DNA of 64,000 nucleotides from Microcoleus sp. BR0-C5 (GTDB taxonomy: Bacteria > Cyanobacteriota > Cyanobacteriia > Cyanobacteriales > Microcoleaceae), in the NCBI GenBank assembly GCA_036705045.1, contig JAUBTR010000019.1; one strand, given 5' to 3'. Of this stretch, positions 5,497 to 63,905 are shown in pieces. Under the pieces are notes generated by a model. That model was given only the letters and a program-made list of their open reading frames with translations, did not search any database and was not told where the DNA came from. Made by a program: the position numbers and the translations under genes. How positions within the stretch are numbered: the stretch's first letter is position 1; every line of letters begins with the position of its first letter.

Positions 5497-5521
5497 ATGT
5501 GACATTTTGCACCAATATAAA

Positions 5522-5563
5522 GAACAGGCAAGATGCCTGTTCCACAAAGATGAATTTTCTTTC
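5522..5563. repeat. Copy of a dispersed hairpin element (GAACAGGCAAGATGCCTGTTCCACAA-AGATGAATTTTCTTTC)
   Basis: Same core as at 9107-9227, 19316-19500, 57609-57722 and the intragenic copies in nadE and ureC. Confidence 0.8.
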
Positions 5564-5742
5564 TACTCGTTACTAGGCAGAGCCGGGGAACCAGTTAATT
5601 GAGTTTTGTGGAACGGGCATATTGCACGTTCTTGACAATGGTGTAATATGTAGGTTTTAAAAAGCATTTAGCATTGGTATATTGTCAATTCGCCACTATT
5701 TTGATATAAATATAAAAGCTAATTCTAGTGAGGATGTTTTAA

Positions 5743-8979: not shown

Positions 8980-9052
8980 CGGCAGTTGGCCGAGCGGTTT
9001 AGGCAGCGAACTCATAATTCGCCCCAGGCAGGTTCAACTCCTGCACTGCCGA
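8980..9052 (+). tRNA. tRNA-Met (anticodon CAU); an elongator Met type or Ile2/lysidine type
   Basis: Cloverleaf folded by hand: acceptor CGGCAGT/ACTGCCG, D-stem GCCG/AGGC, anticodon stem GCGAA/TTCGC with loop CTCATAA, T-stem GCAGG/CCTGC with loop TTCAACT. Discriminator is A and CCA is not encoded. Confidence 0.85.
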
Positions 9053-9106
9053 TTTAAAATTAATCATGACGCTCCAAGCGCGCAAAACCAGGTTTCTTCC
9101 TACTGA

Positions 9107-9227
9107 TATGTTGCACCATTCTCAAGAACAGGCTTTTCGGCCTGTTCCACAAAGAGTGAATTTTCTTGTGGAACAGGCCGAAAAGCCTGTCCCTAAAAAG
9201 CTTATTGAGAATGGTGCAACATTTGAG
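9107..9227. repeat. About 120-bp nested palindromic MITE-like element with outer arms ATGTTGCACCATTCTC/GAGAATGGTGCAACAT
   Basis: Long, nearly perfect inverted repeat immediately 3' of tRNA-Met. It belongs to the GAACAGGC..GCCTGTTC hairpin family. Confidence 0.8.
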
Positions 9228-9494
9228 TTCCTAGGTACTTGGTTGCTCAAGCCAATATTCTCGTAGAAACCTGGTTTATTTGGCCAAAAATTCGCTAAGG
9301 ACACTAAAAAGCCGGTTTCTGCCGGCTGTGACTCTGATAAATCGGCTTTTTTTACCGTTTCTGCAGGCGTCACCCAAGTATTGCTGTGAAATAACCCGGT
9401 GGATGACCACCCGTGCGTCAAAGACTCTCAATCTTTTTGGGGGGCGTTGCTCCTAGCCCGCCCAAAATATACTAATTTAGTCGAACAGTCAATC

Positions 9495-9533
9495 GATTTT
9501 AGATTTTAGATTTTAGATTTTAGATTTTAGAAT
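9495..9533. repeat. STRR heptamer array (GATTTTA)n; related arrays lie at 9652-9676, 10258-10291, 13725-13755, 36939-36985 and 47908-47935
   Basis: 7-bp periodic tandem repeats, read directly. Confidence 0.9.
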
Positions 9534-9678
9534 TGAAGCATTGACCCCACGGATAAATTCGGGGGCTCCTTTATCGGATACAGGTTTTTTATTTCTGGAC
9601 GGATGAATCCGGGGGCTTGTATCCCGGATGCTTGATTGTCAGTTTTGCCCAATCTAAAATCTCAAATCTCAAATCGTA

Positions 9679-19053: not shown

Positions 19054-19315
19054 AATGGCTACCTCTGATTTTACGAATGAGAGGTTTTTCTCTCTGTCTC
19101 CTTATCGTAACGAAAGGTAACGGCGATGTTAATGTTTCAATTAGGGTGTTATCCGTCTGTGGAGGTTCGGTTTGCTGAATAATTACCGCCGACTGCCGTT
19201 TGGCCCGTTAGGGGTTAAAAATCCTTATCCCAAAACGGAAGTTTTTGCTATGAGGCTTGAGGAGGATATCTGTTTGAGTTTTCTGTTTTAATTTTCAGCG
19301 GGTTTTAACTCAAAT

Positions 19316-19500
19316 CTTGCACCATTGTCAGCAACAGGCAAGATGCCTGTTCCACAACAGATGAATTTTCTTTTTGCACCATTGTCAGCAACAGGCAAGA
19401 TGCCTGTTCCACAACAGATGAATTTTCTTTTTGCACCATTGTCAGCAACAGGCAAGATGCCTGTTCCACAACAGATGAATTTTCTTTCTTGTGGGGAGTA
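19316..19500. repeat. Tandem array of 3 x about 60 bp of the GAACAGGCAAGATGCCTGTTCCACAACAGATGAATTTTCTTT hairpin element
   Basis: Three near-identical direct copies. The overlapping six-frame ORFs (19288-19565) encode repetitive peptides and are artefacts. Confidence 0.9.
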
Positions 19501-19617
19501 TGGGTTGGGCACGCGAGCCCGCCCATAAAAGCCTGATTGAGAATGGTGCAACCTATGAGTTTCAAGCAGGTTTAACTATAATGACTTACCCTAAGAATAG
19601 TTTAGATCCTAATAATT

Positions 19618-36894: not shown

Positions 36895-37177
36895 AGCATA
36901 AATTTGCTCCTCACACCAGAGGTGCGTGAGCCATCAGTCGATTTTAGATTTTAGATTTTAGATTTTAGATTTTAGATTTTAGATTTGACTCCACATCTTA
37001 GATTTTAGAAGCCAAGACAGGCTTCCCAGTCCATACAGCTTGTTCGATAATGTCAGCGGCGCGCTTGACTCCGCCCGATCGCCTCTTGCATCTCGATCGC
37101 CCTTTGTTTATACGACTCTGGGGTTAGGACTTTCACAATTGCCGATCGGACTTTAGAAACGCTCAATCCTCCTATAA

Positions 37178-38021: not shown

Positions 38022-38252
38022 ATGTCTTTTGAATTTGAAGGGGTCAATCAGTTTTCTGCAGAAGTTGAGCAAGATTCTGCCGTGCAGCAGCAACAGCCGC
38101 CAGCCAATTCTGTTGCTGAAGAATTGAACGATACGGAATTAGATGCGATTGCAGGCGGTCATATGTTATGGGATTATATGGAGCAGTGGCGTTTAGATAC
38201 AGACAATCCTGATGATACTAAGAACACACCACCTCTGATGGCAGGATTCTGA
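38022..38252 (+). CDS. Double-glycine-leader peptide precursor A (core HMLWDYMEQWRLDTDNPDDTKNTPPLMAGF)
   Basis: Leader ends ...ELNDTELDAIAGG followed by H. This is the classical GG cleavage motif recognised by C39-peptidase ABC transporters. Confidence 0.6.
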   Translation: MSFEFEGVNQFSAEVEQDSAVQQQQPPANSVAEELNDTELDAIAGGHMLWDYMEQWRLDTDNPDDTKNTPPLMAGF

Positions 38253-38478
38253 CAACTCACCACAGTTGAAGTGGACTTAAGAACAATCTGACTTGCAAAG
38301 AATGCCTGTATGGCCTATAAAATCGCGAACGGAAATTCGTCAAAAAGCGTTAAGTCAACCGTATTGAATTTTAACTCAGTAGCGGGTAAAAAGGTTGGAT
38401 AGCAGGCAACTTTGCTAGGAGTTGGTTCGATCGCTTTTGGAAGCAAAATTCACTAATTATGTCAGGAGGAAACATCAA

Positions 38479-38727
38479 ATGGAAACCAACAATCAATTTT
38501 TGCAAGAAGTATCGCCCCTGTTGTCCCAAATCGCAGCATCAGAATCGGTCAACTCAATCGATGAAGAATTGAACGAATTGGAATTAGAGGCGATCGCGGG
38601 TGGCCATTCCAATATGGCCAATCGCGCTCGGGCTGCGGGTATTCCTGTGATCACAGGCAGCGGGCCAAGGCCGAAATTTGCTAGTGGTTTCTCCATGTAC
38701 GGAGAGGATAAAAAGAGCGTCTTCTAA
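38479..38727 (+). CDS. Double-glycine-leader peptide precursor B1 (core HSNMANRARAAGIPVITGSGPRPKFASGFSMYGEDKKSVF)
   Basis: AGGAGG RBS 8 bp upstream of ATG 38479; leader METNNQFLQEV...IDEELNELELEAIAGG. The ORF track's longer 38422 start lacks an RBS. Confidence 0.65.
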   Translation: METNNQFLQEVSPLLSQIAASESVNSIDEELNELELEAIAGGHSNMANRARAAGIPVITGSGPRPKFASGFSMYGEDKKSVF

Positions 38728-38780: not shown

Positions 38781-39041
38781 ATGGAAACCAACAATCAATT
38801 TTTGCAAGAAGTATCGCCCCAGTTGTCCCAAATCGCAGCATCCGAATCGGCCAACTCAATCAATGAAGAATTGGACGAATTGGAATTAGAGGCGATCGCG
38901 GGTGGCCATTCCAATATGGCCAATCGCGCTCGGGCTGCGGGTATCCCTGTGATCACAGTCAGCGGCCCAAGACCTAATTTTGGTCCAGGCCCGGCTATGA
39001 ATAAGGAATTCTTGGAAGCATTAAGGAATTTCGATCGCTAA
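38781..39041 (+). CDS. Double-glycine-leader peptide precursor B2 (tandem paralogue of B1 with a divergent core C-terminus)
   Basis: Near-identical RBS, leader and first 20 core residues to B1. The core tail diverges (…VSGPRPNFGPGPAMNKEFLEALRNFDR). Confidence 0.65.
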   Translation: METNNQFLQEVSPQLSQIAASESANSINEELDELELEAIAGGHSNMANRARAAGIPVITVSGPRPNFGPGPAMNKEFLEALRNFDR

Positions 39042-39442: not shown

Positions 39443-39682
39443 GCCTCATTCTGCTCGATTCATAGTGATGGCTGTAGGGGCGGGTTCGCCAAAATCTCGA
39501 ACACCGATCGAACAATTCCATAAACCCGCCCTCCCCCGCCTTGATTTACATCAACATTTTATCCTATAAATTAGCAGTTGATTTGTATTGTTGGTGGGTG
39601 GGGGCGGGTTTACGAGCTTGTTGATTTTTACCAGATATTGTTGGTGAACCCGCCCCTAGGGGTGTGTGAAATCGCGCTTACA

Positions 39683-42649
39683 TTACTCTAACTGTCGCTC
39701 AACTAATCTAGCAAACAATCCTCCCTGTTCGATCAATTCCTCAAACGAACCCACCTCCACCAAACGGCCTGCTTCAATTACATAAATGCGATCGGCATTG
39801 CGAACCGTACTCAGGCGGTGGGCGATGACAACTCGCGTCACATTCAACTTATCCAAACTCTCAGTAACGATCGCCTGCGTGCGGTTGTCCAAAGCACTCG
39901 TAGCTTCATCCATCAGGATAACCTTTGGTTTGACAACCATCGCGCGGGCAATTAACAATCTCTGCCGCTGTCCTCCCGAAAGATTCGTGCCGCCCTCGCT
40001 GACAACCGTGTGCATTCCCATCGGCATTTGTTCGATATCGGCGGCTAAACCGGCCATTTGCGCCGCTTCCCAAGCTTCCTCCTGCGTTACCATCGCCCCG
40101 CAGGTAATATTGTCAAACATTGAACCAGCATTAATTCTGCCGTTTTGCAGCACTACTCCTAACTGCCGCCGCACAGCTTGAACGTCGAGGCCTGCTAAAT
40201 CTTGATTGTCGTAATAAACAGTGCCGCTTTGTGCTATTTCAAACCCCAATAACAGCCGAAATAATGTTGATTTGCCACTACCAGACGGCCCGACGATCGC
40301 GATAAATTCCCCCGGTTGAATATTGATGCTGACATCATCTAAAATTGGGGGCCCGTCCTCCCGGTAGCGGAAAGTTGCCCTATCGACAGTAATTTGACCT
40401 TGCAAGCGGCCGGGATCGGCTTTTGTCGGGTCAGATTCCGGGATGCCCTGGACGATCGGTTTGGCTCGCTCCCACAGCGGTACAATTCCTAAAATATCAG
40501 TTAGGGTATTGCTCAAATCTGTGACGCCAGAAAGAAAGGTGCCGAAGGCGGAATTAAAAGCAAGAAAGGTTCCCATATTCAGTCCGCCTCCTCCTGTTTG
40601 AGGAGTTTGCATGAACACAATTGCAAACCAAAACATCAGAATAGAACTTACTAACGGCAGCGCTTCATTAAATACTGAAACACTGTCGTCAATTCGTTTA
40701 ATTCCTGTTCTTAGCTTGATTTGCTGGCTGTATTTTTTCGCCCAAGCTGCAAACGCTCGCCCTTCTGCAGCAGCTACCCGCAGCTTTGATACTCCGTTAA
40801 TTAGTTCTACTGTCAGCCCGTTAATGTCGCCTTCTCCTGTTTCCATCTGCCGCTCTTTTGGGATTAAGAGCAAGCTGGATGTAACTGTTACTATAACCGC
40901 AATAAGAGTTAAACCAATTCCGACTAAAGCCAGTGGCAGGCTGTAAATAAACATCAGCCCCAAATTCAGCAGGGAAAATATCGCGCTCAAAAGTGTCCGC
41001 TGCGTCGTGCCGCTGAGTTGGGCGCGAATTTGATTAACAGCTAATAAGCGAGTTAGCAAGTCGCCAGAAGAATAGGTGCGAAAAAACGCCGGTTTTAATC
41101 TCAGCAATCGATCCCAAACTGCTGGCTGGAGAGTGCCGCTGGCAACATTTTCGATCCGCAGCGTCAGAATGGTTTGGGCGATGCTAAATACAGCCCGTCC
41201 GATCGCCGCAACTAACAATACCAGCCCTAACTGCCACAGTAACAAACGATCGCTGTCAGGAATAGCATCATTGACCAAAATCGAGGTAGCTTGCGGCGTC
41301 ACCATCCCCAGCAGCGTTCCCAATATCCCCAGCCCGAAAGCAGCGATCATGTCTTTTTCGTAGCCCTTCGTCCCGAAGCGAAACAGTTCCGCAGCGTTGC
41401 GAACTAATAGCGGCAGCGGCCGGTAAAACATGAGAGTTTCTGGCGACAACTCTTGGGCGATTGCTTTAGTTACCCGTTGGCGGCTGCGGTCGATCGGATC
41501 GAACAAAGTATAAGGATCGTCCTTACCGGGCAACAAAGCTACAGGTCGATTGTCGGACTTTGTATAAGCCAACAGCGGGCCGCAGTTCTGCCGCCACCAA
41601 TATCCAACCAGCAGCACGCGGCGGGTGCGAAATTGGGACGATCGCGCGATCGCCTCCATCGGATCTTTAACTCGGCTGAAATCTTCGGAACCCGCCGGGG
41701 GATTGACTGTTATCCCTTGTGCCTTACCTACAGCCCCAGCAGCGATTAACAGCGGTGTTCCTTCCTCAGACAACACGATTTTCCGGGGATGCAGCACCTC
41801 GGTTAACTCTCCCAAAGCTGTCTGAGTGACTTGGCAGTTTAGCTGTTCGCGTTCCTGAAAGCGGCGGAATTCCTCGGCTTTTTGCCGGGAAACCAGCAAA
41901 TTCAAGCAGCAGCAGAAATACTCGTGCAGCAAAGCTAAACTCGCGCGCAGCCAGTCGGCATTTTCCACTTCTGCTGTTGAGAAAATTTGCACCTCAACTT
42001 CCCCGGATGCCACCAGCAACATATTCCCAGCCAGGGGAAACGCTGGGGAAGCGGAATTTAACTTCAATTCCCCGACACTCGCATCGCCCGACGAGACGCG
42101 CACCCAGACAACTGTTTCCGGCGGCGATCGCAGAATTTGACCGGGAATTAGCGATATCTGCTGCGAGGCTGCTACAACCCCAGTTTCTGGGGCAACTTTT
42201 TCCTCCGGCACGCGCGGCGGATCTATCCCGTAGGGAATCGCCCGTTCTCCCAAATGCTGTATCCACCCTTCCACAAGGGCGATGTTTTTGCCGTCACCAG
42301 CAGCCACTAAAGCGGCACAATCTGCGATCGCGATCTGTTCCAGTTCCGTTTCCGCGATTGCGATCGCCAGAAGTCCCCAACCTGGTTTTGAAATTTCTCC
42401 CCCCCTTGTAGGGGCGGTGCCCCCGTGCCCGCCCTGGTTGGGCGTGGTAGCAGCGCCAAACAAAGCCTCGCCTGCACTGACGCCGAACAGATAATAGCGG
42501 TTGCCCGCCGGCTTCTCACTTTGTATCTTGGCTGCAAAAACTGCGATCGCGCCCGATCGAACAATCCACACCTGATGCGGGTCATTCAGCAGCAGCGGTT
42601 CATTTCCTTTAATTCGGTGCAGTTTCTTAACAGGATTTAGATCGAGCAT
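39683..42649 (-). CDS. ABC transporter with N-terminal cyclic-nucleotide-binding-like domains (NHLM bacteriocin-system type, permease + ATPase fused)
   Basis: Walker A GPSGSGKST, signature LSGGQRQRL, Walker B ILMDEATSALD, six-TM ABC exporter core, and about 400 aa of N-terminal cNMP-like region. Confidence 0.75.
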   Translation of the reverse strand: MLDLNPVKKLHRIKGNEPLLLNDPHQVWIVRSGAIAVFAAKIQSEKPAGNRYYLFGVSAGEALFGAATTPNQGGHGGTAPTRGGEISKPGWGLLAIAIAETELEQIAIADCAALVAAGDGKNIALVEGWIQHLGERAIPYGIDPPRVPEEKVAPETGVVAASQQISLIPGQILRSPPETVVWVRVSSGDASVGELKLNSASPAFPLAGNMLLVASGEVEVQIFSTAEVENADWLRASLALLHEYFCCCLNLLVSRQKAEEFRRFQEREQLNCQVTQTALGELTEVLHPRKIVLSEEGTPLLIAAGAVGKAQGITVNPPAGSEDFSRVKDPMEAIARSSQFRTRRVLLVGYWWRQNCGPLLAYTKSDNRPVALLPGKDDPYTLFDPIDRSRQRVTKAIAQELSPETLMFYRPLPLLVRNAAELFRFGTKGYEKDMIAAFGLGILGTLLGMVTPQATSILVNDAIPDSDRLLLWQLGLVLLVAAIGRAVFSIAQTILTLRIENVASGTLQPAVWDRLLRLKPAFFRTYSSGDLLTRLLAVNQIRAQLSGTTQRTLLSAIFSLLNLGLMFIYSLPLALVGIGLTLIAVIVTVTSSLLLIPKERQMETGEGDINGLTVELINGVSKLRVAAAEGRAFAAWAKKYSQQIKLRTGIKRIDDSVSVFNEALPLVSSILMFWFAIVFMQTPQTGGGGLNMGTFLAFNSAFGTFLSGVTDLSNTLTDILGIVPLWERAKPIVQGIPESDPTKADPGRLQGQITVDRATFRYREDGPPILDDVSINIQPGEFIAIVGPSGSGKSTLFRLLLGFEIAQSGTVYYDNQDLAGLDVQAVRRQLGVVLQNGRINAGSMFDNITCGAMVTQEEAWEAAQMAGLAADIEQMPMGMHTVVSEGGTNLSGGQRQRLLIARAMVVKPKVILMDEATSALDNRTQAIVTESLDKLNVTRVVIAHRLSTVRNADRIYVIEAGRLVEVGSFEELIEQGGLFARLVERQLE

Positions 42650-45213: not shown

Positions 45214-45293
45214 AATCCCCCTGATTGTTGGGGAGTAGGGGTTGACTTTGACTGCTCTTGTCCCCCCCTTCTTAAGGGGGGTTAGGGGGGATC
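45214..45293. repeat. MITE-like element with GATCCCCC(T)...GGGGGGATC termini; a second copy lies at 63707-63785
   Basis: Two copies share TCTTGTCCCCCCCTT...GGGGGNTAGGGGGGATCTAGA. Confidence 0.75.
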
Positions 45294-45433
45294 TAGACTT
45301 CGATATAAACAAGAGAGACGGTCGGTTTAATAGTAAGGTGCGTTAGACCCGAAATCCTCGATAATCATTCTAGAACTTCGTCTGACGCACCCTACAAGTC
45401 GATGGGAGTGTGACAGTTGGCCTTAGTCCTAAA

Positions 45434-47221
45434 TTAATAAACTCCTGTCAAAGACCGAAAAATAGGAATCACGTAAGAAATCGGCGCTAACTGCCCGATT
45501 TGAACCCTAACGAGCGCCGTAGTACCGGGGGAAATCTTGAGAGGAGGCCCGTTCGATGAAGACCATTTGTAACCGCTGATAGTGTTCGGATCTTGTTGCA
45601 ATTCCACAAATATTTGCACGGGAGCACCGCCACCAGCTATGTTTTTTGCGATGCTGTCAGCCAAATTTTCATTGCCGATAATTGACGACATATCTTGATT
45701 AGTAACCGGAAAAGGAGAAACTTGGGTTACTTTGCCGACAATGCCGCCGTAGCGTTCCCGCTTGACGACGCTAGGGGTAACTTGTACGGTCATTCCCGGT
45801 TTAATTTGCTTGCCGTCTCTGTCAGCAAAATAAACAAGACTGACCATTTTTTCGCGAGAATTTTTAGATTCAACTGTCCCGATCCTTGTACCGATGTTCA
45901 GCATTTGACCTGCAACGGCGCTAACTTCTAAAACGCGGCCGTCGTATTGGCTGGTAATTTTGCTGTCGGCTGTCAACTGATTCTGCAAGTGGGCAATCTT
46001 GCGTTTAACTTCCTGAATTTGATTTGTTTGGGCGATCGACTTCTCTAAATCTTGTTGAGCTAGTTTGACCGCTTGGGTTCCCATGTCTTTAATCTTAGTT
46101 TTGATTTCATCAATTTTGTTCAGGTTTTGCAGGTACTCCCGTTCGGTGTTACTTTTCTGAACTTTAAGTTCTTGGAGGTTGTTTTTAATTTCGTTAAGGC
46201 GGTTGAGATTTTGCAGGTACTCTCGTTCGGTATTGGTAGCTTCTACCTTGAGTTGCTGCCGGCTGTTTTTGAGGTCGTCAATTTTATTGAGATTTTGCAG
46301 GAATTCGCGATCGCTATTGGTTTTCTGAACGTCGAGTTCCTTTAACTGCGTTTCAATATCCGCCAATTGCATCTGAGAGTCCGCGAATTCCTGTCTCGCT
46401 TGCAGCATTACATCCTCGCTAATCGCCCTCTCTTGTTCGTAAAGAACGCGGCGAGTTTCAAACCGCTGCTGCAAAGTTTCCACCAAAGAAGTGATGTGCT
46501 GTTTTCGCTGCAAAAGACTGTCCCGTTTTTTGGCGATCGCGGCCAGAGTTTGCTGCCGCAATATCGGCGCAACTTGTTCTCGCCGCAAACTTTCTTCCAA
46601 ACTTTGGCGTTTTTCTGCTAATGCTGTCAGAGTTTGCTGCCGCAGTACCGGCGCAATTTGTTCGCGGCGCAAACTTTCTTCCAAACTTTGGCGTTTTTGC
46701 TCTAATGCCGCCATACTTTGCTGGTGCAATATCGGTGCAACTGACTCCCTATTCAAGCTTTCTTGAAGGTCTTTTTGCTGCTGTTCTAGGGTTTTTAATT
46801 CCAGGGCAATTTGCTGTTTTTGCAGCTTATTAGTATCTTTTTTTTGCCCTTGCAGTTGGGCTAACTTTGCTTTTTCTTGCTCTAACTGCTGCTTGAGGTC
46901 TAGTTTATCAATTCTACCGATTTCCTGACCCCGTTTAACAACATCTCCAGGCTTGATATTTAGCTTTACCAATTGACCGGAACTAGCAGCTTGAAATTGC
47001 ACGACTCGGCGGGGCAGAAGCAACACGCCTTGACCGGAAACAGTCAGCGGAATTCGCCCGATCGCACTCCAAACCCCCGCAGCAGCAACTAAACAGCCAA
47101 TTGCAGTTAGTGGCAGCCACGATCGAGGACTAACCACCTGCATCATTTGGTCGAGGCGTTCCGGCGAAGATAAGCGATCGATCGCTTCAGTAGTGAAAAG
47201 TTTGTTTTGTTTTACCTGCAT
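45434..47221 (-). CDS. HlyD-family periplasmic adaptor/secretion protein with expanded coiled-coil
   Basis: N-terminal TM, long coiled-coil with two internal 3x tandem repeat blocks, and a C-terminal beta-barrel HlyD domain. Confidence 0.8.
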   Translation of the reverse strand: MQVKQNKLFTTEAIDRLSSPERLDQMMQVVSPRSWLPLTAIGCLVAAAGVWSAIGRIPLTVSGQGVLLLPRRVVQFQAASSGQLVKLNIKPGDVVKRGQEIGRIDKLDLKQQLEQEKAKLAQLQGQKKDTNKLQKQQIALELKTLEQQQKDLQESLNRESVAPILHQQSMAALEQKRQSLEESLRREQIAPVLRQQTLTALAEKRQSLEESLRREQVAPILRQQTLAAIAKKRDSLLQRKQHITSLVETLQQRFETRRVLYEQERAISEDVMLQARQEFADSQMQLADIETQLKELDVQKTNSDREFLQNLNKIDDLKNSRQQLKVEATNTEREYLQNLNRLNEIKNNLQELKVQKSNTEREYLQNLNKIDEIKTKIKDMGTQAVKLAQQDLEKSIAQTNQIQEVKRKIAHLQNQLTADSKITSQYDGRVLEVSAVAGQMLNIGTRIGTVESKNSREKMVSLVYFADRDGKQIKPGMTVQVTPSVVKRERYGGIVGKVTQVSPFPVTNQDMSSIIGNENLADSIAKNIAGGGAPVQIFVELQQDPNTISGYKWSSSNGPPLKISPGTTALVRVQIGQLAPISYVIPIFRSLTGVY

Positions 47222-48082
47222 CAGCTATTCCTTTCGAGAGTGCGATCGCGGCTGTAAGCAGGGGTGTATTTGAAGGGGAAATTCCTTGCAAGTCAATTGA
47301 GGCACAAACAATTTCCCAACAAACGTTCAAAGCTTCCGTGCAATTACTTGAATGTTCTCACTCCTGTTTGCAGCTTGCCTGTAAAATCACTTTACGACAA
47401 TTAACCCTCGTAAGACCTAACTAACAGTAGAGTTTTCAGCTAACAAAAAGACCAGCTTACAGCCAGTCTTCCGACGGGGGAATGACCCGAACTTTTGGCT
47501 AGGTATCGCCCGCAGCCAGGGCCTACACATTGGTCACCAGTTAAGCTAAAAACACTTTTGTCAATGAGTAGAATTACTCTAAGGTATTGAAGTACCAACT
47601 TAAAATGTGCTGCGATTTGTTCAATGAGGTGGGTAAAACATTTACGACACCTGCAAGGATTGCTATATAGTTTGATTTTTGATAAAATTACTGAACCAAC
47701 CCTAGTGCAACAAAAGGTTCTAGCTTTGCTTGTGTTTCTCTAACTTATACGCAGTAAACCGGGCGCCCGAATCTTTCTTTAAAAAGCTTACTCTACACTG
47801 AATATACCTTTTGTCTAGTGGGGAAGTTCAGTGTAATTGGTGATTGGTAATTGTAGGTTGGGTAGAACGAAGAGAAACCGCACCTACAATTACTATTAAC
47901 AGTCAATCGATTTTAGATTTTAGATTTTAGATTAAAGAATTGAAGCATTGACTTGCGCGAGATAAATTCGGGGGCTTGCTTATCGGATACAGGTTTTTGA
48001 TTTCTGGGTCCTGAGTCTGCTTTCGGAATGAATCACGTGGCGGGTATCCTGGATGCTTTCGGTCAAAATCAAAAGTCAAAAG

Positions 48083-48816: not shown

Positions 48817-50241
48817 ATGAAAACTACCACAGAAAGCCTGCAGCTCACAGGTTTTGAAGAAATCTTAGAAGACCAGGAACTAACGGTTTCTTCAGCAGAT
48901 TACAGCCTTTTGACCGATCTCTACCAGCTAACGATGGCCGCTTGTTACGTCGGGGAAGGGCTCGACGGGCGGGCCGCGAGTTTTGAGTTGTTCGCGCGCA
49001 GGCTGCCAGAAGGTTTTGGCTACGCGATCGCGATGGGTTTGGCCCAAGTGCTCGACTATCTGGAGAAATTTCGGTTTTCTCAGTCGCAAATTCAGGCTTT
49101 GCAGTCCACTGGGATTTTTGCCGGCGCAGGAGAGCGATTTTGGACTTTACTCGCCACAGCCCGTTTTACTGGCGATGTTTGGGCGGTGCCGGAGGGGACG
49201 GCGGTGTTTGCCAATGAGCCACTGCTGCGAATTGAGGCTCCTCTGTGGCAGGCTCAGTTAGTGGAAACTTATTTATTGAATGCGATAAATTATCAAACTT
49301 TGATTGCGACGCGGGCCGCGCGGCTGCGCGATGTGGCGGGCCCGGAGGCTAAGTTGCTGGAATTCGGGACGCGCAGGGCTTTTGGGCCTCAAGCTGCTGT
49401 TTGGGCGGCTAGGGCTGCCCTGGCTGCGGGCTTCGATGGAACTTCTAATGTTTTGGCTGCTTTGAAGTTGGGCCGCAAGCCTGTCGGTACGATCGCCCAT
49501 GCTTTGGTAATGGCTGTGGCTGCCCTCGAAGGCACCGAGAATCAGGCGTTTGCAGCTTTTCACCGCTATTTTCCGGGGGCGCCGCTGCTGATCGATACTT
49601 ATGATACTGTGGCGGCGGCGCGGATGTTGGCCGATCAAGTAAACAGCGGTGAAATGCAGTTGGAAGGCGTGCGGCTGGATTCGGGCGATTTGGCGGTGCT
49701 GTCTCGGGAAGTTCGATCGATCCTTCCGGGCGTTCCAATTTTTGCTAGTGGTGATTTGGACGATCGAGAAATTGCTAAATTAAAAAGTAGCGGTGCTTGC
49801 ATTGACGGTTACGGTTTGGGAACCAAGTTGGTCAGCGGTTCCCCTGTGAACGGTGTTTATAAGTTGGTGGAAATTGACGGAATTCCGGTGATGAAAGAGG
49901 CAAGCGGCAAGGTAACATATCCAGGAAGAAAGCAAATTTTTAGACATATTGAAAATGGGCAAATTCTCGGAGATTGTTTGGGATTGTCGGGAGAAACTAT
50001 TAAAAATAGCGATGATTACGTACCATTAATGGAGTTGGTTGTCAAGGATGGTAAACAAGTCCAGAACCAGGAAAGTTTGGAGGAGATCGCCAAACGCACT
50101 GCTGCTTCTGTCGCCAGTCTTCGACCCGAAACTCGCCAACTTGACAACCCGATTTCGCCGTCAGTGGAAATTTCAACAGATTTGCAGACTCTCACCCAAA
50201 AAACGAAAAAGAGTCAATCGATTTTAGATTTTAGATTTTAG
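48817..50241 (+). CDS. pncB: Nicotinate phosphoribosyltransferase
   Basis: LTDLYQLTMAACY and GTRRA motifs are conserved NAPRTase blocks. The ORF track starts at 48799; the 3' end reads through into an STRR array. Confidence 0.8.
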   Translation: MKTTTESLQLTGFEEILEDQELTVSSADYSLLTDLYQLTMAACYVGEGLDGRAASFELFARRLPEGFGYAIAMGLAQVLDYLEKFRFSQSQIQALQSTGIFAGAGERFWTLLATARFTGDVWAVPEGTAVFANEPLLRIEAPLWQAQLVETYLLNAINYQTLIATRAARLRDVAGPEAKLLEFGTRRAFGPQAAVWAARAALAAGFDGTSNVLAALKLGRKPVGTIAHALVMAVAALEGTENQAFAAFHRYFPGAPLLIDTYDTVAAARMLADQVNSGEMQLEGVRLDSGDLAVLSREVRSILPGVPIFASGDLDDREIAKLKSSGACIDGYGLGTKLVSGSPVNGVYKLVEIDGIPVMKEASGKVTYPGRKQIFRHIENGQILGDCLGLSGETIKNSDDYVPLMELVVKDGKQVQNQESLEEIAKRTAASVASLRPETRQLDNPISPSVEISTDLQTLTQKTKKSQSILDFRF

Positions 50242-50351
50242 ATTTTAGATTGAAGTCAGTAGTCAGTAGTCAGTAGTCAGTAGTCAACAGTCAACAGTCA
50301 ACAGTCAACAGTCAACAGTCAACAGTCAACAGTCAACAGTCAACAGTCAAC
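50216..50351. repeat. Compound STRR array (GATTTTA)4-(AGTCAGT)4-(CAACAGT)n
   Basis: Three consecutive heptamer repeat types, overlapping the pncB stop region. Confidence 0.9.
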
Positions 50352-50366
50352 AATTACCGATTCCCT

Positions 50367-52127: not shown

Positions 52128-53981
52128 ATGAAAATTGCGATCGCACAACTCAACCCTACTATTGGTGATATCTTTGGCAACTCCAACCTAATTCTGGAGG
52201 CTGCGAAAAAAGCTGAGGTTGAGGGCGCAAACTTATTGCTAACACCGGAACTTTCCCTGATCGGTTATCCGCCGCGCGATTTGTTAATCAATCCGAGTTT
52301 CATTGCAGATGCAGGTGCACAGTTGCTGCAACTAGCGCAAGCTTTGCCACCGGAGTTGGCACTCATAGTCGGCACTGCCTTACCTAATGCTAATGCTGTT
52401 AAACTCGGCGGAAAATCATTGTTTAATAGCGCTGTTTTGTTGCAAAATGGCGTGGTCAAACAAGTTTTTCATAAACGCTTGTTGCCTACTTATGATGTAT
52501 TTGACGAAGATAGATATTTTGAACCGGGACAAAACAGCCATTATTTTACTATTGGCAAAGTCAAAATCGGCGTGACAATTTGTGAAGATTTGTGGAACAA
52601 TGAGGAGTTTTGGGGTAAACGCAGTTACGCGGGCGATCCTGTTTCCGATTTGGCAAAATTGGGTGTAGATTTAGTGGTGAATTTGTCGGCATCGCCTTAT
52701 TCTGCGGGGAAGCGGGGAGTGCGATCGGCTATGTTGCAGCACAGCGCCATCCGCTGCGGAATACCGATTGTTTACGCTAATCAGGTAGGCGGAAATGACG
52801 ATATTATTTTTGACGGCAGCAGTTTTGCTGTGAATCGAAAGGGTGATTTAATTCAGGTATTGGCTTCTTTTGAAACTGATTTGGCGCTGCTGGAATATGA
52901 CCCAGCTAAACAAGATTTAGTTGGCAGCGGGAACGGGCAAGATGCCCGTTCCACAACAGATTTGGGATTATGTGAAGGACGACAAAAACTAGGTTCGATC
53001 GGCAGTGGCGTTGGCAGCGGCGGGAACGGGCAAGATGCCCGTTCCACAACAGATTTGAGTTTTCATCCGGCAGAAGGAGATGCCGAAATTTGGGCGGCTT
53101 TGGTTTTGGGAGTGCGAGATTATGTTCGCAAGTGCGGTTTTTCTAAGGTTGTACTCGGTTTGAGTGGCGGGATAGATTCGGCTTTGGTGGCTGCGATCGC
53201 CAGTTGCGCGATCGGGGCCGAAAATGTTCTAGGGGTGTTGATGCCTTCTCCTTACAGTTCGGATCATTCTGTTAACGATGCTTTGGAATTAGCCCGAAAT
53301 CTGGGCATCGCGATCGAACTCTTGCCGATCGGCGATTTGATGAAAACTTACGATCGCACTCTAGCCAATTTGTTTGTCAACACAACTTTCGGGATTGCTG
53401 AGGAAAATATTCAATCGCGGATTCGAGGCAATCTGTTGATGGCAATTTCTAACAAGTTCGGACATTTGCTGCTTTCGACGGGCAATAAGTCGGAAATGGC
53501 GGTGGGTTACTGCACTCTCTACGGCGATATGAATGGGGGATTGGCGGTGATTTCCGATGTGCCGAAAACTCGCGTTTATTCGCTTTGTCGGTGGCTGAAT
53601 TCTGGCGGATATGTAGGGGCGGTGCCCCCGTGCCCGCCCTCTCCGTACCCACACCCGTGCCCGCCCCTGGGAAAGGAAATTATTCCGGTTAATATTATTA
53701 GTAAAGCGCCGAGTGCTGAACTGAAACCGGGTCAAATTGACCAAGATTCTTTGCCTGCATACGATGTTTTGGATGACATCTTGTATCGGTTGATAGAACA
53801 TCACGAATCTGCCCAAAAAATTGTCGCTGCAGGACACGATGAAGCGGTGGTTAAACGGGTAGTAAAATTAGTGAGGCAAGCGGAGTTTAAACGGCGGCAA
53901 GCAGCCCCTGGTTTGAAAATTAGCGATCGAGCTTTTGGTACCGGTTGGCGGATGCCGATCGCCAAATCTTCCTTCTATTAA
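52128..53981 (+). CDS. nadE: Glutamine-dependent NAD+ synthetase (CN-hydrolase + NAD synthetase domains), carrying in-frame repeat insertions
   Basis: N-terminal nitrilase-like domain (MKIAIAQLNP...), C-terminal PP-loop SGGIDSA. 617 aa, about 60 aa longer than usual because of the insertions at 52918-53060 and 53624-53672. Confidence 0.85.
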   Translation: MKIAIAQLNPTIGDIFGNSNLILEAAKKAEVEGANLLLTPELSLIGYPPRDLLINPSFIADAGAQLLQLAQALPPELALIVGTALPNANAVKLGGKSLFNSAVLLQNGVVKQVFHKRLLPTYDVFDEDRYFEPGQNSHYFTIGKVKIGVTICEDLWNNEEFWGKRSYAGDPVSDLAKLGVDLVVNLSASPYSAGKRGVRSAMLQHSAIRCGIPIVYANQVGGNDDIIFDGSSFAVNRKGDLIQVLASFETDLALLEYDPAKQDLVGSGNGQDARSTTDLGLCEGRQKLGSIGSGVGSGGNGQDARSTTDLSFHPAEGDAEIWAALVLGVRDYVRKCGFSKVVLGLSGGIDSALVAAIASCAIGAENVLGVLMPSPYSSDHSVNDALELARNLGIAIELLPIGDLMKTYDRTLANLFVNTTFGIAEENIQSRIRGNLLMAISNKFGHLLLSTGNKSEMAVGYCTLYGDMNGGLAVISDVPKTRVYSLCRWLNSGGYVGAVPPCPPSPYPHPCPPLGKEIIPVNIISKAPSAELKPGQIDQDSLPAYDVLDDILYRLIEHHESAQKIVAAGHDEAVVKRVVKLVRQAEFKRRQAAPGLKISDRAFGTGWRMPIAKSSFY

Positions 53982-57480: not shown

Positions 57481-57608
57481 AATCCATAATGAAGTAAGAT
57501 GAAGATTTGCCGTTGGGTGGGGGCGGGTTTTTGAGATTGTCTATTTTGGGAAAATATTGTTTGTAAAACCCGCCCCTACATGATTGTATAATCTGTTAAA
57601 ACAGAGAT

Positions 57609-57722
57609 ATTGCACCATTGTCAATTAGCCTTTTATGAACAGGCAAGATGCCTGTTCCACAAAATATAAATTTTCTTGTGGAACAGGCATCTTGCCTGTT
57701 GCTGAAAATAGTGCAAGATATC
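57609..57722. repeat. Nested palindromic hairpin element (same family as 9107-9227) immediately 3' of ureC
   Basis: ATTGCACCATTGTCA...GAACAGGCAAGATGCCTGTTCCACAAAATATAAATTTTCTTGTGGAACAGGCATCTTGCCTGTT...AGTGCAAGAT. Confidence 0.85.
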
Positions 57723-57724
57723 AG

Positions 57725-59482
57725 TTAAAACAAAAAGTATCGCTGCGCCATTGGCAAAACTGTTGCCGGTTCGCAAGTTAACAATTCCCCATCCGCCCTG
57801 ACTTCATAAGTTTCTGGATCGACTTCCATTTGTGGCAAATAATCGTTTAGTTTCATGTCTCTTTTACTAATTTGTCGTGTCCCGGAAACTGCTACAGTGG
57901 GCTTTTGCAAACCGAGCTGTGCTGCAATACCTCGATCGCGCGCAGCTTGGGAAACAAACGTCAGACAAGTCGCCCCAATCGCCCCGCCAAAACTGCCAAA
58001 CATCGGCCTCATGTGCACTGGTTGCGGCGTAGGAATGCTGGCGTTAGCATCTCCCATCTGCCCATAGGCGATCGCCCCTCCTTTAATTACCAGTTCCGGT
58101 TTCACCCCAAAAAAAGCCGGTCGCCACAAACACAAATCCGCCAATTTTCCCTCTTCCACCGAACCGACATACTGACTAATTCCGTGAGTAATTGCCGGAT
58201 TAATTGTATATTTCGCAATGTACCGCTTCACCCGAAAATTGTCATTTTCTCCCCCTGTGGAACGGGCATCTTGCCCGCCCAAACCCCCTGTGGAACGGGC
58301 ATCTGGTCCGTTCAAATTCCCCCTTTGAACCTTCATTTTATGTGCCGTTTGCCAAGTCCGAATAATCACCTCTCCAACTCTTCCCATCGCCTGAGAATCA
58401 GAAGAAATCATACTAAACGCGCCTAAATCGTGGAGAATATCCTCAGCAGCAATAGTTTCCCTTCTAATTCTCGATTCAGCAAAAGCCACATCTTCAGGAA
58501 TGCCCCGATCCAAATGGTGGCAAACCATCAACATATCTAAATGTTCTTCTAAAGTATTGACAGTGTAAGGGCGAGTCGGGTTAGTTGACGAGGGCAAAAC
58601 ATTAGCTTGACCGCACACTTTAATAATATCCGGCGCGTGTCCGCCGCCAGCACCTTCGGTGTGGTAAGTGTGAATAGCGCGATTTTTAAATGCGGCAATT
58701 GTAGCTTCCACAAATCCCGCTTCATTGAGAGTATCGGTGTGAATTGCAACTTGCACATCGTACTCGTCAGCTACACTCAAACAAGTGTCGATCGTTGCTG
58801 GTGTAGTTCCCCAATCTTCATGGAGTTTCAAACCCATTGCACCGGCAAAGATTTGTTCAATTAATCCTTGGGGTTGACTGCTATTTCCTTTACCTAAAAA
58901 TCCTAGATTTACGGGGAAAGCGTCAGCAGCTTGCAGCATTCGGTACATATGCCAAGGCCCTGGAGTGCAAGTTGTGGCGTTTGTACCCGTTGCCGGGCCA
59001 GTGCCGCCGCCGATCATTGTCGTGATGCCGGAGGCGATCGCCACTTCTATTTGCTGCGGACAAATAAAGTGAATGTGAGTATCAATTCCCCCAGCGGTGA
59101 GAATCATTCCTTCACCGGCAATCACTTCTGTACCGGGCCCGATAATAATATCTACCCTATCTTGAATATAAGGATTTCCGGCTTTACCAATTTTGTAAAT
59201 TTTGCCGTCTTTAATGCCCACATCTGCTTTAACAATTCCCCACCAGTCTAATATTAAAGCATTAGTAATCACCGTGTCAACAGCGCCGTCTGCATTAGAA
59301 ATAGGCGACTGTCCCATGCCGTCGCGAATAACTTTGCCACCGCCAAACTTAACTTCATCCCCGTAGGTTGTGAAGTCTTTTTCAACTTCTATGAATAATT
59401 CTGTATCGGCTAACCGGACGCGATCGCCCACAGTCGGCCCGAAGGTTTCCGCGTAGGCGCGGCGATCCATTCTGTAACTCAT
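57725..59482 (-). CDS. ureC: Urease alpha subunit, with an in-frame repeat insertion
   Basis: Amidohydrolase metal ligands ([13 protein letters not shown], carbamylated-Lys region); 585 aa. The insert [24 protein letters not shown] is encoded by two copies of the GAACGGGCAAGATGCCCGTTCCACA repeat. Confidence 0.9.
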
Positions 59483-63624: not shown

Positions 63625-63706
63625 TTAGTAGGGCGGGCCGGGCCAGTCAAGGGGGTGTGAACTTAAGACTAAAGTCCTCTGTATCTCTCGCTTTTATCCG
63701 AGTCTA

Positions 63707-63785
63707 GATCCCCCTAAATCCCCCTTAAAAAGGGGGACTTTGAGCGCTCTTGTCCCCCCCTTTTTAATGGGGGCTAGGGGGGATC
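63707..63785. repeat. Second copy of the GATCCCCCTAAATCCCCC...GGGGGATC MITE-like element
   Basis: Matches 45214-45293. Confidence 0.75.
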
Positions 63786-63905
63786 TAGAGGAATGTGACT
63801 CAGACAGGAGACTGATACTAACTTTGACCTTAAGTTGAACTTAAATTAACACAAATGCGCGGCCCGCCCTAGTCATTACATCCAAATTTACCCTCAAAAA
63901 TTGAT

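Follow-up and report, generated by a model that had tools for sequence, protein, structure and literature searches.

The nadE gene and its product

The stretch analysed here, called the window, comprises 64,000 nucleotides of contig JAUBTR010000019.1 (assembly GCA_036705045.1) of the cyanobacterium Microcoleus sp. BR0-C5. Our subject is its gene nadE (52128..53981, + strand) and the short palindromic repeats that lie within this gene. The gene is an intact open reading frame (ORF) for a glutamine-dependent NAD+ synthetase of 617 aa, as judged from the ORF itself, Pfam domains, protein identity and an AlphaFold2 model. The product matches the NAD+ synthase of Microcoleus sp. BR0-C5 at 100% identity and consists of a CN_hydrolase domain (aa 2-258) and an NAD_synthase domain (aa 322-592). 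The catalytic triad of the CN-hydrolase is present (E41, K116 and C152), and the SGGxDS motif of the synthetase, which holds catalytic/ATP-binding residues, is intact at positions 346-351.

An earlier reading of the window, made from the letters alone and without database searches (hereafter the sequence-only reading), had stated that the nadE frame stays open through all of its repeats and that the gene is about 60 aa longer than is typical. Both statements were borne out. The 617-aa frame reads through in frame from 52128 to 53981, while the structurally solved NadE homologues measure 549-590 aa, and about 540-575 aa is the usual length among the best-scoring members of the wider family.

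The AlphaFold2 model of NadE, based on a 102-sequence alignment, reached a mean predicted local distance difference test value (pLDDT) of 89.8 and a predicted template modelling score (pTM) of 0.90. The only stretches of low confidence were residues 274-315 (block means 34-46) and approximately 497-515 (49-66), and these correspond to the two repeat inserts. The enzyme looks intact and the inserts are modelled as disordered; both inserts lie in permissive surface loops, one being the inter-domain linker and the other a loop of the synthetase domain. Predicted tryptic peptides across the inserts include STTDLGLCEGR and LGSIGSGVGSGGNGQDAR.

Two repeat families in frame within nadE

The first family, F1, is represented in nadE by two exact copies of the 36-nt unit GGGAACGGGCAAGATGCCCGTTCCACAACAGATTTG, a number not reached in any of 100 shuffles, where no copy was seen. 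Copy 1 (52929..52964, +), recognised by exact match and fold, consists of a 10-bp stem, a 3-nt loop and a CCACAA tail. Copy 2 (53022..53057, +) is likewise an exact match, and both are translated as GNGQDARSTTDL, so the sequence-only reading was right that nadE holds two F1 copies with the same peptide, and its coordinates for them were correct as well. When treated as single-stranded DNA, the hairpin is predicted to fold with -12.7 kcal/mol (z -5.0). Copies 1 and 2 lie at a distance of 93 nt, with GTTGGCAGCG ahead of each; the spacer between them (52965..53021, +; GLCEGRQKLGSIGSGVGSG) ends at its 3' side in the second GTTGGCAGCG (53010-53019), which repeats 52920-52929. The spacer is unique to nadE in the approximately 1 Mb of sequence searched, and for this reason it was rejected as part of a larger mobile unit.

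The second family, F2, has its core GTAGGGGCGGTGCCCCCGTGCCCGCCC at 53613..53639 (+), with a GTAG tag and a weak hairpin, translated as VGAVPPCPP. This core belongs to a 29-nt stretch, TGTAGGGGCGGTGCCCCCGTGCCCGCCCT (53612-53640), of which an identical 29-nt copy is found at 42407-42435. After it comes the F2 tail once more, in a 27-nt reiteration (..CCCGTGCCCGCCC; 53640..53666, +), translated as SPYPHPCPP, without a counterpart in Oscillatoria nigro-viridis PCC 7112 (L002). Tail reiterations of this kind are frequent beside F2 copies at other loci. The core and the reiterated tail jointly encode VGAVPPCPPSPYPHPCPP. The sequence-only reading had recognised a second family in frame in nadE and had given its peptide AVPPCPPSPYPHPCPP correctly, with a start coordinate that was about 12 nt too late. 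The predicted fold of F2 is weaker than that of F1 (-8.3 kcal/mol, z -2.2); five of the unit's six frames contain no stop codon, and its peptides are Gly/Ala/Pro-rich. A search of 52800-53800 with the Rfam covariance models, at E-values up to 1, gave no match.

Allelic states of nadE in related strains

For comparison we used the best 120 clusters of NadE orthologues, all of Microcoleus type and 574-618 aa long, and the alleles were compared both in alignment and at the DNA level in 11 fetched nadE loci plus four found in the genome scan. The nadE bodies are 92-97% identical, so that shared 27-mers are unremarkable among them.

Site 1 follows KQDL at residue 264. In about 40 of the best 120 clusters it is occupied by an unrelated 12-codon sequence, ..SNQQSAAGIEAAP.. 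(the N class); O. nigro-viridis PCC 7112 and M. vaginatus have a single F1 copy, and the window nadE has two copies with the spacer. Copy 2 aligns with the sole F1 copy of L002, L003 and L004 and is thus the counterpart of the repeat in one-copy alleles, while copy 1 is missing from one-copy and repeat-free alleles alike. The one-copy and two-copy alleles differ by 93 nt in length and could interconvert via recombination between direct repeats of about 47 nt. Several further variants of the F1 copy were found at this site: an inverted loop (CAAGATG to CATCTTG, hence GQDA to GHLA), a stem pair altered on both arms from A-T to T-A (L003 and L243), uncompensated stem mismatches (L244 and L245), a strongly decayed copy (L247) and a copy lacking one arm, with its tail triplicated (L246). 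The N allele was also considered as a decayed F1 copy and this was rejected, as local alignment against shuffles revealed no similarity (p 0.2-0.96), while for L247 the decay from F1 was highly significant. F1 likewise gave no sign of conservation above the gene background, the hairpin being no more conserved than nadE as a whole.

Site 2 follows WLNS at about residue 492. The shortest loop there has 7 residues (P0089), and several unrelated loops of 14 residues also occur. A single F2 core gives a loop of 16 residues, and F2 with tail gives 21 or 25. One lineage carries a third dispersed repeat family, F3 (an inverted pair of GGCAGAGCCTGGGAACG), together with an F2 variant in a loop of 39 residues. 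When the 27-nt F2 core is subtracted from the PCC 7112 allele, exactly the loop length of the short L006 allele is obtained.

In members of the wider family the linker at site 1 is short and the loop at site 2 comprises only 3-5 residues; two of these representatives, at 65% identity, are probably cyanobacterial. The solved structures 4f4h and 5kha are likewise short at both sites, and aa 262-316 of the window NadE correspond to an 11-residue linker in 4f4h. The insertion of about 47 aa between the domains, as described by the sequence-only reading, therefore holds against distant homologues; among Microcoleus alleles, the two-copy form is only about 30 aa longer and the one-copy form is of equal length. 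Many independent assemblies contain repeat-bearing alleles, the complete genomes CP003614 and CP031705 among them, which excludes an assembly error, and repeat-free orthologues have unrelated sequence or short loops at both sites instead of the same extra residues. Because of these repeat-free orthologues, the short outgroup loops and the independent assemblies, the segments are neither ancestral nor artefactual.

Two observations on more distant loci may be added. In a distant and probably cyanobacterial NadE (P0121, 65% identity), the corresponding linker between the domains contains a tandem repeat of its own, LRETS, which suggests that this linker accepts insertions in other lineages too. 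In a metagenomic relative (L001, 1565-2890), a gene for IS605 OrfB/TnpB lies between a chorismate-mutase-like gene and nadE; it was rejected as a source of the hairpins, its ends being unlike F1 or F2.

Repeats in ureC and an ABC transporter gene

Repeats of the same families occur in frame in two other genes of the window. In ureC (57725..59482), two F1-derived units are present at 58255..58313 (- strand), with the element in the same strand and frame relative to the gene as in nadE. In the Klebsiella UreC, this loop has about 16 residues fewer. The state of the loop differs among four relatives, with two, two or four units or another family: M. vaginatus has two units and PCC 7112 four tandem 33-nt units, and in Microcoleus sp. 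F6_B6 (L048) the loop is occupied by a different hairpin family made of a C-run and a G-run.

In the N-terminal part of an ABC transporter (39683..42649), an F2 core (42408-42434) with C-run and G-run flanks forms a segment at 42390..42446 (- strand) translated as ..NQGGHGGTAPTRGG... Here the core is read as GGHGGTAPT, i.e., in the orientation opposite to that in nadE. The 19-residue F2 segment is missing in P0272-P0274 and present in one orthologue. Runs of CCCCCCC/GGGGGGG form a fourth palindromic family, found at 45244-45297 and 63703-63789, and similar runs flank many F2 copies.

Dispersal of the repeats in the window and across genomes

The F1 core recurs in the window with up to three mismatches at 5521, 5610, 19331/19388/19445, 57636, 57680, 58259 and 58292. 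Two intergenic copies (5521-5543 and 5610-5632) lie on either side of an F3-like motif at 5575-5594 (whole region 5507..5632), and three tandem intergenic units of 57 nt (19317..19487, +) contain an F1 hairpin each. Just 3' of ureC there is an intergenic inverted F1 doublet (57631..57707), which resembles a REPIN (a hairpin formed by a pair of repetitive extragenic palindromic sequences, REPs) and is predicted to fold as a long hairpin (-31.4 kcal/mol, z -12.4). Another intergenic inverted doublet, downstream of a tRNA gene (9119..9199), is composed of an F1 variant with a different loop, AACAGGCTTTTCGGCCTGTT. Hence the earlier statement that the F1 hairpin is common in intergenic DNA agrees with its recurrences in the window, except that the copy given at 9107 is this doublet with the other loop. 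The intergenic F1 hairpins of the window sit in longer units with terminal inverted repeats TTGCACCATTCTCA...TGAGAATGGTGCAA. A shell resembling a MITE (miniature inverted-repeat transposable element), TTGCACCATT(C/G)TCA ... TGAGAATGGTGCAA, bounds the intergenic F1 units 9096-9234, 19302-19566 and 57595-57710, the first of which follows the tRNA gene 8980-9052; the intragenic F1 copies have no such shell.

The scan for F1 outside the window used the exact 27-nt core and one genome per species, and it detected the core in more than 116 genome stretches. The named hosts among the matches listed are Microcoleus, Tychonema and 'Lyngbya' CCAP 1446/10, the rest being cyanobacterial metagenome-assembled genomes, mostly of Oscillatoriales. 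The copies are mostly intergenic; in many cases a TTGTGG-hairpin in inverted orientation comes 12-18 nt later, which gives the REPIN arrangement CCACAA-N12-18-TTGTGG. The exact 27-nt F2 core was present in at least 120 metagenome stretches, some of them with inverted F2 pairs as well. Both cores have sharp boundaries amid many unrelated flanks.

The genic fraction was estimated from exact copies inside open frames of at least 200 aa, against random positions of the same contigs. For F2 in metagenome contigs, 63 of 142 copies (44%) were inside such frames compared with 70% of random positions; for F1, the corresponding values were at most 17% and 72%. After de-duplication the F2 hosts formed 36 gene groups, and clear Pfam domains were found in all nine hosts tested: three WD40 / AAA-like (AAA_35) proteins, a TPR glycosyltransferase, TamB, a TPR-CHAT protein, an Eco57I-type methylase, a radical-SAM protein and RecJ. 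Over the gene groups, the Gly/Ala/Pro frames of F2 were used 16, 12, 8 and 7 times and the Arg-rich frame once, the frame with TAG being necessarily at zero. The hydrophilic GQDARST frame of F1 was used by four of four independent host genes. These biases in frame use are what selection on the translated peptide would produce.

F1 doublets also lie in frame in two membrane proteins outside the window. A 712-aa membrane protein (L031, 1919-4054) has such a doublet and, besides it, another segment of about 67 aa with the F1-like peptides DGQDAHPT and RQDTHSN, which is missing from a 645-aa orthologue (L037). The presence of repeats in frame is thus general in the Microcoleus lineage.

Origin and spread of the repeats

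The extra segments derive from dispersed hairpin repeats. Between close relatives these repeats have been gained, lost, multiplied, flipped and decayed, and several families use the same loops. We consider it very probable that the segments of NadE are REP-like repeats tolerated in permissive loops and that they are selfish or neutral. Hairpin copies would arrive anywhere in the genome, and the survivors would be those with a net length that is a multiple of three, a stop-free frame, a harmless peptide (Gly/Asn/Asp/Ser/Thr-rich or Gly/Ala/Pro-rich) and a loop tolerant of disordered residues. The ribosome would then read through the repeat segments in nadE, and the elements would most likely be selfish or neutral passengers that add no enzymatic function. 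Later change could come from tandem duplication or deletion between direct repeats, loop inversion, point decay and recombination between strains, with strain-to-strain length differences in NadE, UreC and other proteins as the expected outcome. As the architecture of the elements is REP-like, a hairpin-recognising HUH tyrosine transposase of the REP-associated type (RAYT) is the obvious candidate for moving them, and template switching or gene conversion would be the alternative.

Several observations weigh against this explanation. The one-copy allele at nadE site 1 has the same length as the N allele, 36 nt of F1 replacing 36 nt of unrelated sequence; measured against the nearest allele without repeats, one F1 copy thus exchanges sequence at constant length and inserts nothing net. 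The sequence-only reading, which spoke of inserted elements, was right in that the segments are repeat-derived, but this exchange of 36 nt for 36 nt is not fully covered by its wording. The filled allele of the ABC transporter gene is 57 nt longer and it also displaces about 16 nt of resident sequence (about 16 nt to about 73 nt). Neither a target-site duplication nor a clean boundary is visible at nadE site 1 or in the ABC transporter gene, and such replacement-type junctions are explained by recombination, gene conversion or template switching no less well than by cut-and-paste. In the neighbour-joining tree of NadE, constructed with the variable sites masked, the N, one-copy, two-copy and site-2 states are scattered and the basal Microcoleus lineages are repeat-bearing; the tree gives no order of the N and repeat alleles, and the scatter indicates that between-strain recombination or recurrent change was involved. 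A scan of 1.9 Mb for the HUH...Y..NP motif at two stringencies identified no RAYT- or IS200-like ORF, which is a weak negative. Moreover, we infer both that the inserts are translated and that they are neutral for enzyme activity.

These points bear on an alternative that we regard as possible, although we would not expect it, namely that the repeats are brought into the loops from other copies in the genome, either by gene conversion (homologous or driven by microhomology) or by replication template switching, without a dedicated transposase. The same loops would be hit again since a resident hairpin or a short matching flank draws exchange. Both replacements, that of nadE site 1 and that of the ABC transporter gene, speak for it, and so does the use of one loop by different families depending on the strain (F2 or F3 at nadE site 2; F1 or the C-run/G-run hairpin in ureC). 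Loop flips that leave the stems intact, an apparent resemblance of the nadE flank TTGAGTTTT to the spacers of intergenic doublets, the failure of the 1.9 Mb motif scan to find a RAYT-like gene and the scattered allele states on the NadE tree point in the same direction. However, the similarities of the flanks are short, and the sharp boundaries of the F1 and F2 cores in many unrelated contexts would sooner be expected of an element moving as a whole. Gene conversion also touches the mode of spread only, and the repeat origin of the segments is undisputed by it. A rather doubtful proposal goes further and regards the hairpin elements of nine codons (about 27 nt), F2 in particular, as effectively adapted to coding sequence; they would be a major ongoing source of between-strain change in the loop length of conserved proteins, mainly at a small number of permissive hot-spot loops, and their spread might not require a RAYT-type transposase.

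The remaining explanations concern the segments themselves. They could be retained as useful, either as flexible linkers tuning the communication of the two NadE domains or as hairpins in the mRNA at the domain boundary, with an effect on ribosome pausing or transcript stability, and the wide and old occurrence of repeat alleles within Microcoleus, the compensated A-T to T-A stem change in L003 and L243 and the position of site 1 exactly between both domains would agree with such a role. We nevertheless find it improbable, as repeat-free, decayed (L247), mismatched (L244 and L245) and one-arm (L246) alleles persist in conserved genes, copy number varies among relatives and the same elements are found in many unrelated proteins; in addition, the inserts are modelled as disordered and the hairpin is not conserved above the whole gene. 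The lengths of NadE linkers and loops vary across bacteria, and the segments could be taken on that ground for an ancestral low-complexity linker, or else for an assembly artefact, with a coincidental likeness to repeats. This we give practically no credence and count as refuted: the identity over 27-36 nt to hundreds of dispersed copies is beyond chance, outgroup NadE proteins are without the segments, close relatives differ in presence and copy number, and the alleles recur in independent assemblies, two complete genomes among them.

Relation to known repeat families

The sequence-only reading had likened the elements to the Rickettsia palindromic elements (RPEs; Ogata et al. 2000), which, according to two sources, are palindromic and occur both in intergenic DNA and in frame in genes (PMC10969869, PMC3733652). 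The comparison is apt as to how the elements work. Both kinds lie in frame in conserved functional genes, have many unrelated hosts and encode peptides thought to be located at the protein surface. However, the first-described RPEs are about 150 bp long, with a peptide of tens of residues, whereas the Microcoleus units have 27-36 nt (9-12 residues). The sequences appear unrelated, as judged from the range of the exact F1 copies, which among the matches listed covers Microcoleus and other Oscillatoriales only. The host of RPEs is a reduced intracellular parasite and the present one a free-living cyanobacterium with a large genome, in which loops are common to several families and copy number depends on the strain. 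F1 and F2 work like RPEs without being members of that family.

The REPs are a second point of reference. In-frame insertions of REPs and MITEs are documented in many bacteria (Di Nocera 2013, PMC3733652), reviews report in-frame repeat fusions in several taxa (PMC3184786, PMC10969869), and in-frame fusions of a MITE reading frame with a chromosomal ORF have been reported for Anabaena (PMC3184786, citing Wolk 2010). PMC3733652 also describes REPs tagged with GTAG or CGTC that lie wholly inside ORFs, often in repair genes, and give 20-30 residues when paired; it names the GTAG tag as the hallmark of the largest REP super-family and states that REPs are mostly intergenic. For cyanobacteria, that source gives the families GTAG-12, -15 and -16 in Nostoc, Anabaena and Cyanothece, with no intragenic cases in the text available. 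About 90% of bacterial MITEs were intergenic in a census of 2024 (PMC11602168). REPs and REPINs are associated with RAYT transposases (Nunvar 2010, PMC2817692; Bertels and Rainey 2011, PMC3116915).

The present families resemble REPs in their size of 20-40 nt, their imperfect palindrome and their high copy number. REPs also have a conserved tetranucleotide, GTAG or CGTC, at one end; F2 has GTAG at its start, and F1 has GTGG and not GTAG, on the complementary strand, where the sequence begins TTGTGG. The frequent inverted F1 doublets that form long hairpins, in the window at 57631-57707 and 9119-9199, recall REPINs. F1 is also REP-like in being mostly intergenic (at most 17% of copies in frames against 72% of random positions), whereas F2 is only weakly extragenic (44% against 70%) and lies within genes far more often than REPs or the MITEs of that census. 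The motif scan of 1.9 Mb linked no RAYT gene to F1 or F2.

Among cyanobacterial repeats, the small dispersed repeats (SDRs) are the closest analogue in size and nesting, as compared by description. Those of Nostocaceae are said by Elhai et al. 2008 (Genome Res 18:1484) to measure 21-27 nt and to be nested in varied contexts, including other repeats, and they were reportedly judged mobile by comparison of filled with empty sites. SDRs have been reported solely from Nostocaceae (PMC5861425). The cyanobacterial MITEs (Nezha and the Anabaena MITEs) are similar as non-autonomous repeats of filamentous cyanobacteria, some with ORF fusions (PMC3184786), but the copies in nadE, ureC and the ABC transporter gene are without terminal inverted repeats or target-site duplication and are several-fold shorter.

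No literature on these Microcoleus families, or on repeats in nadE or ureC, was found in a search with incomplete literature coverage. The earlier suggestion that such insertions had not been described thus stands for these particular families only, so far as the literature was searched, since in-frame REP and MITE insertions are already documented. The very small unit, the several families per hot-spot loop and the high intragenic fraction of F2 are features that deserve study.

For Microcoleus, an ecologically important genus of soil and river, the results mean that the length of conserved enzymes is variable: loop segments of 9-45 residues, which belong to probably selfish hairpin repeats, are gained, lost or swapped in NAD synthetase, urease and further conserved proteins. 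With hundreds of its genomes sequenced, Microcoleus offers a ready-made series of sites that are filled or empty, duplicated, flipped or decayed, and this series could be used to measure the rate at which elements enter, the tolerance of loops and the later co-option of inserts. From a practical point of view, the segments inflate length differences and can mislead orthologue alignment and gene calling, and they can serve as strain markers.

Other features of the window

An Rfam match to the small RNA 5_ureB_sRNA (108 bits) was obtained at 59041-59327 (+), antisense to ureC; it probably reflects the conservation of urease coding sequence and not a genuine small RNA here. Three small ORFs on the + strand (38022-38252, 38422-38727 and 38781-39041) adjoin the ABC transporter gene and contain the motif EL(D/E)AIAGGH, which is like a double-glycine leader. 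They lie partly inside 217-nt duplicated DNA and may represent a bacteriocin-type peptide cluster.

Paired GGGTGGGGGCGGGTTT...AACCCGCCCC units occur at 39588-39656 and 57507-57575, just past the 3' ends of the ABC transporter gene and ureC, respectively, and may be terminator-like repeats. Tandem heptamers, (TTTTAGA)n and (AGTCAAC)n, are present at 9489-9548, 36934-36993, 47889-47948 and 50200-50358; arrays of this kind are called short tandemly repeated repetitive (STRR) sequences in filamentous cyanobacteria. A further tandem array at 46517-46768 is composed of three 84-nt units, the second and third with 82% and 68% identity to the first.

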